In this document: in pieces, positions 9,001-12,000 of the stretch
Position numbering within the stretch: position 1 is the first letter of the stretch
How the letters are laid out: every line of letters begins with the position of its first letter
Virus record (IMG/VR): IMGVR_UViG_2737471860_000003
Direction: 5' to 3' (one strand)
Origin: a virus
Lineage: Duplodnaviria; Heunggongvirae; Uroviricota; Caudoviricetes
DNA: 34,370 nt
Made by a program: the position numbers

Positions 9001-12000
9001 TACGTGTTAGCCTGGTGGACCGTGAATGTCAGAAGGTGATTTGTGAACCGCTGGGCCGTAATTACCGCGTCAGTATGCCGCTTATAGCCTTTTGCTCCGG
9101 AAAAAACATGAAGCATCTCGGAGGTGCAGCATGAGTATGGAGCTGATGGTTAAAGCGATGAAAATTCGAGTGGGTAATCCATTGCGAAAACTGGTTCTGA
9201 TCAAGCTGGCTGATAATGCCAGCGATCAGGGTGAGTGCTGGCCCAGCTACCAGCATATTGCTGACCAGTGCGAGATTAGCAAACGTTCTGTGATGAATCA
9301 TATTGCGGCCCTTTGTGATTCCGGGCTGGTAAAAAAAGTCACCCGGAAAGGTGAAAAAGGTAACTCAAGTAATATCTATCTCCTTCATCTTGATGGTGCA
9401 GGAGATTCACTAGGGGGTAGTGCAAATAATTCACTATCTGGTGCAGCAAATTCACCAGGTAGTGCAGGAGTTGCACCAGGGGGTAGTGCAGGAGATTCAC
9501 CCAGAACCAGTCACTCTTTTGAACCAGTCAAAGAACCAGTCAATGAACCAATAGCTGTTGGTGCATCTGCTGATGAGTCTGTGCGAGTTCGTTCAAACCG
9601 ACCGGAATACTCTCCGGAGTTTGAGCAGGCATGGCTGGCATACCCCAAACGTGCTGGTGGCAATTCAAAATCTGCAGCCTTCAAAGCCTGGAAAGCCCGT
9701 TTGAATGAGGGGGTAAAACCCGAAACCATGCTGGAAGGTGTGAAACGCTACGCGGGCTGGGTATCTGCGATGGGTAACAGCGGAACACAATTTGTGAAAC
9801 AGGCTGTCACGTTCTTTGGTCCGGATCGTCATTTCGAAGAATCCTGGGAAGTTCCTGCGGTATCTGCAGCCAGACGCGAGGACCCGTACTTCAAAGCCAG
9901 TTACGACAACGTGGACTACAGCCAGATCCCGGCAGGATTCAGGGGGTGATCATGAGTCTTTTGAATGAAGTTCAGAAATTCATTGAAGCCCATCCGTGGT
10001 GTACTTCCGGAGACATTGCGGATGCTTTTGCAGGTTACTCACGGCAGCGCGTTCTGCAGTCAGCAAGCAAGTTACGTCAGAGTGGGCGTGTGGCTCACCG
10101 TTGTGAAGGAGATACACGCAGACATTTCCCACGCCTGACTGAGAGAGCGCAGGAGCCGGAACCACAACCAGTTCGTGAAACCAGACCTGTGCGCAATTTC
10201 TATGTCGGCACTAACGATCCCCGGGTGATTTTGTGCCTGACCCGCCAGGCGGAAGAACTGGAGTCTAGGGGCTTATACCGTCGTGCTGCAACGGTGTGGA
10301 TGGCGGCATTCCGTGAAAGCCACTCCCAGCCAGAACGAAACAATTTTCTGGCGCGTCGTGAGCGGTGCTTACGGAAAAGCAGCAAGCGCGCTGCATCAGG
10401 TGAAGAGTGGTATCTGTCAGGGAATTACGTGGGGGCTTAATGAGTAATAAATATTGCCAGGCGCTGGTGGAGCTGCGGAACAAACCAGCCCATGAACTGA
10501 AGGAAGTGGGCGATCAGTGGCGCACGCCGGATAACATTTTCTGGGGAATTAACACCCTGTTTGGCCCGTTTGTTCTGGATCTGTTCACTGACGGTGATAA
10601 CGCCAAATGTGCCGCGTATTACACGGCGGAAGACAACGCGCTGGCGCATGACTGGTCAGAACGTCTTGCGGAGCTTAAAGGTGCTGCCTTTGGTAATCCC
10701 CCATACAGCCGCGCCAGTCAGCATGAGGGGCAATACATCACCGGCATGCGTTACATCATGAAGCATGCCAGTGCCATGCGTGATAAAGGCGGGCGCTATG
10801 TTTTCCTGATCAAAGCTTCCACCAGCGAAGTGTGGTGGCCGGAAGACGCAGACCATATTGCTTTTATTCGCGGGCGTATTGGTTTTGAACTTCCTGCCTG
10901 GTTTATCCCGAAGGATGAGAAGCAGGTGCCGACAGGCGCTTTCTTCGCTGGTGCTATTGCTGTTTTCGACAAGACCTGGAAGGGACCGGCAATCAGCTAC
11001 ATCGGGCGCGATGAACTTGAGGCATGTGGCGAGGCGTTTCTGGCGCAGGTTCGCCAGCAGGCGGAAAAACTGGTCAGGGAGATGGCGGCATGACGACGTT
11101 AACTCAATGCCAGCAGCAGGTGCTGGATATGCTGATTTCTTACCAGCAAGAACGTGGCTTCCCGCCAACCAATCAGGAGGTGGCAACCATGCTGGGATAC
11201 CGTTCAGTGAATGCAGCGGTGGAGCATCTTCGCGCACTGGAGAAAAAAGGCGTCATCACGATAAAGCGTGGCGTGGCCCGGGGGATAACGCTTCATACCG
11301 CGGTGAAGGACGACGACAGCGAGGCGGTCGGGATTATCCGCGCACTGCTTGCCGGTGAGGAAAACGCCAGGCTGCGTGCAGCCCACTGGTTACATGAGAG
11401 GGAGCTGAAAGTATGAAGCTGATTCTGCCTTTTCCGCCCAGCGTGAACACGTACTGGCGACACCCCAACAAAGGGGCGTTTGCTGGTAAGAGCCTGATAA
11501 GCGCGGCGGGGCGAAAATTCCAGAGCGCGGCGTGTGCAGCAATAGTTGAGCAGTTACGTCGTCTGCCAAAACCAACGTCGGCACCTGCTTCAGTGGAGAT
11601 CGTGTTGTTTCCTCCGGATAACCGGATCCGCGATCTGGACAACTATAACAAGGCGCTGTTTGACGCCCTGACCCACGCGGGTGTGTGGGAAGACGACAGT
11701 CAGGTGAAAAGAATGCTGGTGGAGTGGGGACCGGTTATCCCGGAAGGGAAGGTCGAGATCACTATCAGTAAGTACGAAAAAGCGAGTTGCAAATTAGCAA
11801 CTCGGTAACGGAATTGAGCAACACCCTAAATTTGGGTATTACCTCGTTAAAGATACTGTATTTATGAACAGTGTATCCTTGATAACTATTAAAAATCGCA
11901 GTAAGTTCATCCTGCATCAACGAAAAGGGAGTGCAGTCCCGCTCGTGGATAAAAATTTGTGGAGAAACCAATGAATCAGTTGCTTGTAATTGATGGCGTT

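Follow-up and report, generated by a model that had tools for sequence, protein, structure and literature searches.

We examined a stretch of 34,370 nucleotides from the IMG/VR virus record IMGVR_UViG_2737471860_000003 (Caudoviricetes), hereafter the window, which is a lambdoid prophage, and focused on its replication initiator gene (9131-9949, + strand, 272 aa) and the yfdN-like gene that follows it (9952-10440, + strand, with an alternative GTG start at 9946). We read the locus as a lambda-style module that very likely has its origin within the gene for the initiator and that does not encode a helicase loader. From its 5' end the initiator gene encodes a winged-helix N-domain, a linker whose DNA carries five iterons and a conserved element of roughly 50 bp, a helical C-domain and a disordered tail whose last residues resemble the C-terminus of the host primosomal protein DnaT.

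The initiator gene and its iterons

The initiator coding sequence begins with ATG at 9131, with GGAGG six bases 5' of it, and its stop codon occupies 9947-9949. A start at the in-frame TTG of 9092 would lengthen the protein by 13 residues (9092-9130); we chose the start at 9131 because of the upstream GGAGG and because the Prokaryotic Genome Annotation Pipeline (PGAP) annotates the identical 819-nt coding sequence in E. coli genomes. Its PHROG matches are to PHROG 270 (1.9e-88), named 'replication initiation protein', and to phrog_8540 (4.8e-62), named 'replication initiation O-like'. Its N-terminal winged-helix domain (residues 1-88; 9131-9394, + strand) contains a match to Pfam HTH_36 at residues 17-67 (PF13730, 43.5 bits with a cutoff of 25, 2.8e-11), and further Pfam matches are to B-block_TFIIIC, HTH_20 and, weakly and below the cutoff of 27, DnaD_N (23.2 bits). 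The Pfam scan gave no match of the initiator to Phage_rep_O, the lambda O family, and the protein is therefore 'O-like', as an earlier note on this sequence had called it, by its architecture of iterons within the gene alone and not by its N-domain. A PDB sequence search with the whole initiator returned nothing meaningful (best E=0.14, low-complexity sequence), and an NCBIfam scan of it gave noise alone. Homologous N-domains are found in PseuP_222, Vibrio phage D67, Min27, RothD and S107, each with its own iteron array beside it. The HTH_36 domain is predicted to bind DNA and would be the origin-binding part of the protein.

Upon examining the DNA that encodes the linker between the HTH_36 domain and the C-domain, we observe five iterons at 9396-9500 (starts at 9396, 9420, 9441, 9462 and 9486; spacing 24/21/21/24), all within the initiator open reading frame (ORF) and sharing the imperfectly palindromic core GTGCA-N5-TTCAC. 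When up to one mismatch is allowed, GTGCANNNNNTTCAC yields five consecutive clustered matches, four of them exact, with a chance expectation of approximately 3 in the whole 34 kb, and the matches outside the array are scattered singletons. Tandem Repeats Finder and a repeat search also recover the array, with periods of 21-24. The iterons inside the gene that the earlier note reported are thus borne out, with clustering far above chance, and so is the acidic and proline-rich linker that it placed after them, which is the Pro/Glu-rich peptide PRTSHSFEPVKEPVNEP. Matches to the DnaA box TTWTNCACA number five in the window, which is the chance level, and zero in 9000-10500.

The iteron sequence covaries with the N-domain type and outlasts changes of the peptide and of the reading frame. 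In the Pseudomonas phage PseuP_222, whose N-domain is 70% identical, the half-sites are kept (GTGCA…TTCAC/TGCAC) and the encoded peptide differs, and in the E. coli variant P0098 the array is read in a different frame. In Vibrio phage D67 (48% identity) the equivalent position holds three repeats, with the 21/24 spacing kept and half-sites of the form GTGAY…GTCAC. Other N-domain types are accompanied by other arrays at the equivalent position, for example a 15-mer in six copies in 569R4 and a 12-mer in three copies in Stx2_14744.

A conserved element adjoining the iterons

The Pro/Glu-rich peptide is encoded just after the iterons by 9497-9547, a conserved cis element (CACCCAGAACCAGTCACTCTTTTGAACCAGTCAAAGAACCAGTCAATGAACC) that we regard as a candidate unwinding or helicase-entry site. 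Within it are three 12-mer repeats with exact copies of GAACCAGTCA at 9504, 9521 and 9533, and the exact 10-mer occurs nowhere else in the window. Phages of E. coli, Salmonella, Pseudomonas and Vibrio, four in all and each from a different host genus, have near-invariant DNA in the element. Identical codons are used at 13/14 and 12/13 of the conserved residues in the element versus 28/66 and 17/54 of those in the N-domain (Fisher p = 7e-4 and 8e-5), and the GC content of 9490-9580 is approximately 45% versus approximately 53% in the flanks. We favour the view that the iterons and the adjoining element act at the DNA level and are not a mere repetitive linker, we think it probable that the strands open, or the helicase enters, at 9497-9547, and we regard the assignment of the origin to the initiator gene as very likely.

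The C-domain and the DnaT-like tail

The C-domain of the initiator (residues 158-238, YSPEFEQAW...GPDRHFEESW; 9602-9844, + strand) is helical in the AlphaFold2 model, with a predicted local distance difference test score (pLDDT) of 80-90 in its core. At E<=1e-3 its family comprises 7,953 cluster representatives, typically proteins of 250-350 aa that have the domain in their C-terminal half. No Pfam or NCBIfam model covers the domain, and a Pfam search with the C-terminal half at E<=10 gave no useful match.

The C-domain is followed by a C-terminal tail, REDPYFKASYDNVDYSQIPAGFRG (residues 249-272; 9875-9946, + strand), and the last ~28 residues of the protein are predicted to be disordered (pLDDT <50). 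The initiator ends in …NVDYSQIPAGFRG and E. coli DnaT in …SEPDSQIPPGFRG, so that …DYSQIPAGFRG stands against …PDSQIPPGFRG. By BLASTP the two extreme C-termini are identical at 8/9 positions, end to end (SQIPAGFRG versus SQIPPGFRG), and these last 9 DnaT-mimicking residues are encoded at 9920-9946 (+ strand). The E. coli DnaT sequence was verified against PDB 9zbt_D (100% identity, 179 residues). The 13 DnaT orthologs compared, at 55-86% identity, all keep R, D, P, D, P, G, F, R and G in the tail, and these positions are as well conserved as the core of the DnaT C-terminal domain (CTD). When a hidden Markov model (HMM) of the DnaT tail was compared with 651 six-frame segments of the window, the sole match was the C-terminus of the initiator (E=0.008; next best 1.7). 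Beyond the tail nothing of DnaT is apparent: in a BLASTP comparison of the whole initiator with DnaT the tail alone aligns, with no N-terminal oligomerisation domain or acidic PriB-binding linker, and the three-helix CTD of DnaT, which binds single-stranded DNA, was not found in the initiator (no PF17948 match; hhalign 1.5%).

Fuller DnaT-like tails are found in relatives that share the C-domain, namely Evi and PhiR5_2 (…RCVNHISEPDTEIPPGFRG), Pantoea L022 (…GRDVNQLSQPDNSIPPGFRG) and Pseudescherichia L024 (…VRDVNAISQPDSKVPDGFTG), with tail-HMM E-values of 1e-11 to 4e-13. In the pattern RD[VI]N..[SP].PD..IP.GFRG the upstream half (RDVN..S.PD) is retained in the relatives and lost in the subtype of the window. 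A DnaT-like tail is also present in 10 of the 142 top representatives of the C-domain family, and such tails occur after at least four unrelated preceding domains. For instance, phages 569R4 and Kati have the tail type of the window attached to another C-domain, and YdaU of the K-12 Rac prophage (L055, 1620-2477), which is composed of DUF1376 and yet another C-domain, ends in …RQVNTVSLPDSAIPPGFRG, identical to the DnaT C-terminus at 15/17 positions; in DnaT itself and in some phage proteins (P0174) the tail follows the DnaT CTD. The DnaT-like tail is modular. Some annotation pipelines already name such initiators 'Primosomal protein I', indicating that the similarity to DnaT has been caught automatically, and we found no functional interpretation of it.

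We also noted shorter and rearranged forms. The terminal ~60 residues including the tail are fused to KilA-N in P0094 and directly to HTH_36 in P0106, both of which are probably recombinants or pseudogenes. P0008 (122 aa) is a C-terminal remnant of a window-type initiator with its tail included, and presumably corresponds to K-12 CPS-53 YfdO. Additional recurrent tails occur on the C-domain (P0321-P0462), of the forms H[ST]GFxxR[DE]YGxT..P.WA[RK]…, …[DE].IDV-COOH and …LP[DE]W[LM]K[DE]…, and each class of tail may go with a helicase or loader of its own.

Helicase loader genes and the YfdN-like protein

We searched for helicase and loader families in 29 proteins of the window, from ORFs between 432 and 23993 and mostly of at least 110 aa (the remaining short ORFs were left out), and Pfam detected no DnaB, DnaC/IstB (PF01695) or lambda-P (PF06992) family among these larger ORFs. 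In the complete phage Ayreon, neither the annotation nor Pfam scans of the larger hypothetical proteins revealed a loader or helicase. Since Ayreon is viable and carries the module without a loader, the loader-less state is functional. These results agree with the earlier note, which had recognised no loader gene and had stated that the yfdN-like product is not recognisably lambda P or DnaC.

The YfdN-like protein matches Pfam PerC (PF06069) at residues 98-149 (36.1 bits with a cutoff of 22.6), and its N-terminal half has no useful Pfam match. PGAP names it 'PerC family transcriptional regulator', and its homologs are likewise named PerC family. We detected no similarity to lambda P or DnaC, and neither an AAA+ IstB/DnaC ATPase domain nor a lambda P fold was found. 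The model consists of a winged helix and a helical domain and resembles transcription regulators rather than loaders; with this architecture and family the protein is not a recognisable loader. The loader-less relatives Evi and P0440 do not have YfdN. The yfdN-like gene adjoins the module and probably lies outside the replication machinery, and the suggestion in the earlier note that its product might be an unrecognised loader is disfavoured.

The type of tail and the type of loader

We then compared the tails with the genes that follow them. Among the 16 DnaT-like-tail cases examined, the tail is followed in ten by a gene of the DnaC family without a helicase (PhiR5_2, L022, L024, P0346, P0339, P0425, P0325, P0397, Pantoea P0352 and YdaU-YdaV), and in six by no loader (the window, Ayreon, 118970_sal3, 569R4/Kati, Evi and P0440), with loaders of a non-DnaC type present beside the tail in 0/16. 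When the same C-domain carries the tail …LPVSGFSEQDYG..CNW (SGFSEQDYG..CNW), the next genes encode an AAA+ (IstB-type) loader of 292-299 aa and a DnaB-like helicase, in 11/11 cases (the loaders of L013, L015 and L018 were located by tblastn). Members of the same N-domain family that have a DnaT-CTD-like or other C-terminal part and do not have the GFRG tail have other partners: RothD is accompanied by a lambda-P-like protein, S107 by a primase-helicase and PseuP_222 by a 'replisome organizer'. A full-length alignment connects the phage DnaC homolog with E. coli DnaC (E=5e-76), and a peptide that engages one could therefore plausibly engage the other. The order YdaU-YdaV mirrors that of the chromosomal dnaT-dnaC.

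Proposed mechanism and alternatives

Taken together, these comparisons suggest a mechanism in which the HTH_36 N-domain would bind the five iterons at 9396-9500, and the adjoining 9497-9547 would be the place where the strands open or the helicase enters. The helical C-domain would represent a widespread phage 'replication organiser' domain, and the flexible tail, …DYSQIPAGFRG-COOH, would copy the C-terminus of host DnaT as a short docking peptide that brings host DnaB6-DnaC6 to the opened origin, most likely via DnaC. If the tail recruits host DnaB-DnaC, a P-like or DnaC-like phage gene becomes unnecessary, and YfdN would be a neighbouring transcription regulator of the PerC type with no replication role. 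The iteron binding, the unwinding site and the contact of the tail with DnaC or DnaB are each proposed from sequence comparison, and we give the mechanism as a whole somewhat better than even chances. The earlier note had suggested that the initiator recruits host DnaC/DnaB directly through its C-terminal domain; the DnaT-like tail and the pairing of tail and loader speak, if indirectly, for host recruitment through the C-terminus, and the part implicated is the disordered tail and not the globular C-domain.

Several observations weigh against this mechanism. The tail of the window resembles DnaT well in its last 9 residues alone and is weaker than that of the Evi/YdaU type. Furthermore, the tail adjoins the downstream gene and the loci are phylogenetically non-independent, and the association of tail and loader may thus reflect one co-inherited block of DNA and is suggestive, short of proof. 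The tail subtype of the window always occurs together with yfdN (window, Ayreon, sal3, 569R4 and Kati), and a contact between tail and YfdN is possible. No classical AT-rich unwinding element was seen, and 9497-9547, at approximately 45% GC, is not distinctly AT-rich in the way of classical unwinding elements. Finally, in the literature on DnaT its N-terminal domain (NTD) has been proposed as a possible recruiter of DnaB/DnaC (PMC13377028), a direct contact of DnaT with DnaC has not been demonstrated in published work (PMC11087952), and no function is assigned to the DnaT tail in PMC13377028, PMC4132743, PMC5778457 or PMC11087952.

Among the alternatives, the one that survives best is that the tail docks on PriA, PriB, DnaB, DnaG or SSB rather than on DnaC, with loading of the PriA restart type at the opened origin. 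DnaT does operate within the PriA/PriB complex; however, the phage tails pair with DnaC-family genes, and in no case with a PriA-like or PriB-like gene or another type of loader, and the reported contacts of DnaT to PriA and PriB are made through its CTD and linker and not the tail (PMC13377028), leaving this alternative improbable. We consider it less probable still that YfdN is the missing adaptor or loader, bound by the tail and bringing DnaB in the manner of lambda O-P: yfdN occupies the position of lambda P and co-occurs with the window-type tail in all five examples, but its product belongs to the PerC family with a model that resembles transcription regulators, and the loader-less Evi and P0440 do not have it. 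Least probable of all is that the repeats, which lie in frame and give a peptide of low complexity (GGSANNSLSGAANSPGSAGVAPGGSAGDSP), merely provide a flexible Gly/Ser/Ala linker with the origin elsewhere, or that the prophage is a replication-defective remnant that lost its loader, defective prophages being common in E. coli, since the iteron motif is kept where the peptide (PseuP_222) or the frame (P0098) differs, a separate array for every N-domain type occupies this position, the adjoining 9497-9547 is frozen at synonymous sites, and the viable phages Ayreon and 2H10 have the same module without a loader.

Recruitment of host DnaB-DnaC by the tail would have consequences for DnaT itself. 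In the preprimosome structures of 2026, DnaT is modelled to residue 154 in the mature complex, and the same paper states that the recruitment of DnaB/DnaC 'remains unknown' (PMC13377028). We tentatively suggest, with less confidence than for the phage mechanism, that the DnaT tail (~residues 160-179, …RDVNTVSEPDSQIPPGFRG) recruits DnaB6-DnaC6 via DnaC to the preprimosome, and that it is a portable docking motif that stems from phages. If this is true, many temperate-phage initiators bear the DnaT tail on unrelated domains and engage with it either their own DnaC homolog or, as in the loader-less prophage of the window, host DnaC. In E. coli, dnaC comes directly after dnaT (PMC5778457), and the enterobacterial dnaC is regarded as a domesticated phage gene (PMC5109545); the 3' end of dnaT together with dnaC would then be a co-domesticated phage pair of initiator tail and loader. 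The question of how PriA/PriB/DnaT recruits DnaB-DnaC in replication restart, stated to be unknown in recent structural and biochemical papers, is thereby touched, with the comparative data pointing to DnaC and to the tail of DnaT, which is not resolved in the structures. For the phage, a tail of 9-24 residues offers a testable answer to how a lambdoid phage dispenses with a helicase loader, and the frozen 50-bp element is a candidate for a new type of helicase-entry site, common to phages of four host genera.

Prophage setting and distribution

The module is widely distributed. When 5,426 complete E. coli genomes were searched, 2,729 of them partly or fully matched the 1.7-kb region around it, with identities of mostly 95-99%, and at least 80% of it was covered in 838. 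The module thus touches about half of this genome set, and it also occurs in Stx2c-converting phages. The initiator is 98-99.6% identical at the amino acid level in the viable phages 2H10 and Ayreon (host E. coli K12; Ayreon 98%), and 97.8-98.9% identical in Stx2c-converting phages among the matches listed, and Salmonella phage 118970_sal3 has a relative at 87.5%.

Upstream of the module, the leftward early operon encodes Ead/Ea22, DUF551, YfbR-like and DUF2303 proteins. A ParA/MinD-like ATPase gene (4762-5847, - strand, 361 aa; Pfam AAA_31 2.3e-16, CbiA) sits between the cI-like repressor (6072-6833) and the leftward early genes, and may serve in partition, defence or exclusion; Ayreon has just short hypothetical ORFs at the matching position. 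Rightward after the cI-like repressor follow a YdaS-like cro analogue, a YmfL/CII-like gene, an ORF for an Ash and Rha protein, a small PHROG-1153 protein, the initiator and the yfdN-like gene. The Ash and Rha ORF (7750-8913, + strand, 387 aa; Ash at residues 117-212, Rha at 223-312) begins far 5' of the point where PGAP, in a near-identical genome, starts its call of 321 aa, and is akin to the Rha/Ash proteins that define some Stx-phage 'Eru' types. The gene directly upstream of the initiator (8910-9134) shares its last 4 nt with the start of the initiator gene, an overlap suggestive of translational coupling.

Downstream of yfdN we find genes for a Dam methylase, a LexA-DNA-binding-domain protein, RusA, KilA-N, DUF968, Q, lysis proteins, a lambda-type Nu1/A terminase and the portal. 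The phage Dam methylase (PF05869; 10407-11093, + strand) overlaps the 3' end of yfdN by approximately 34 nt, and a second DNA methyltransferase of the prophage, N6_N4_Mtase (15496-16557, + strand), lies between Q and the lysis genes. The 109-aa protein between the Dam methylase and RusA (11087-11416, + strand; Pfam LexA_DNA_bind 2.6e-19) consists of the LexA DNA-binding domain alone, without the S24 peptidase domain, and might be an uncleavable LexA mimic.

Comparison with known systems

The closest overall parallel is the lambda O/ori-lambda/P module. As in lambda, the origin lies within the initiator gene, with four to five imperfectly palindromic iterons spaced approximately two helical turns apart in linker-coding DNA and beside the presumed opening site, and the initiator has two domains, of which the C-terminal part brings the helicase in lambda and probably does so in the window. 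In contrast to lambda, the N-domain is HTH_36 and not Phage_rep_O, the C-domain belongs to a different, Pfam-less family with a DnaT-like tail, the iterons are flanked by a conserved 12-mer-repeat element of approximately 45% GC rather than a distinctly AT-rich tract, and there is no P gene.

With E. coli DnaT (primosomal protein I) the initiator shares the extreme C-terminal …(D)SQIP(P/A)GFRG-COOH, and in the relatives the whole tail of 17-20 residues is shared; in the phage relatives a DnaC-family gene comes immediately after the gene with the tail, just as dnaC comes after dnaT. Unlike DnaT, the initiator is origin-specific and not a fork-restart factor dependent on PriA/PriB, and the NTD and CTD of DnaT are absent from it. 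A DnaT-like tail is also found in the Rac YdaU-YdaV(-YdaW) module (YdaU …VNTVSLPDSAIPPGFRG) and in 'O + DnaC' modules of the PhiR5_2 type, and the C-domains of PhiR5_2 and Evi are approximately 50% identical to that of the window. However, the YdaU-YdaV and PhiR5_2-type modules encode their own DnaC homolog and have DUF1376-type or other N-domains, and the tail of the window is more diverged than theirs.

Two further systems share the HTH_36 domain. DopC, described as derived from a lambdoid initiator, is an HTH_36 protein with the DnaT C-terminal motif that is encoded beside the P-like DopE (Brezellec et al. 2017, PMC5509034), and thus joins the same two parts as the initiator of the window. 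It is a domesticated chromosomal gene with a lambda-P-like partner in DopE and reportedly no iterons (PMC5509034), whereas the initiator of the window is a phage gene with iterons, without a P-like partner and with a tail that is not preceded by the DnaT CTD. Finally, the non-lambdoid 'Eru' replication regions of Stx phages, with their Rha/Ash and HTH_36 proteins, have been catalogued and their replication proteins described as unstudied (Fagerlund et al. 2022, PMC8951638). The window has the same order of a cI gene, a cro-like gene, a Rha/Ash protein and an HTH_36 protein as these regions (PMC8951638); that paper classifies the regions and describes no origin, tail or loader logic (PMC8951638).

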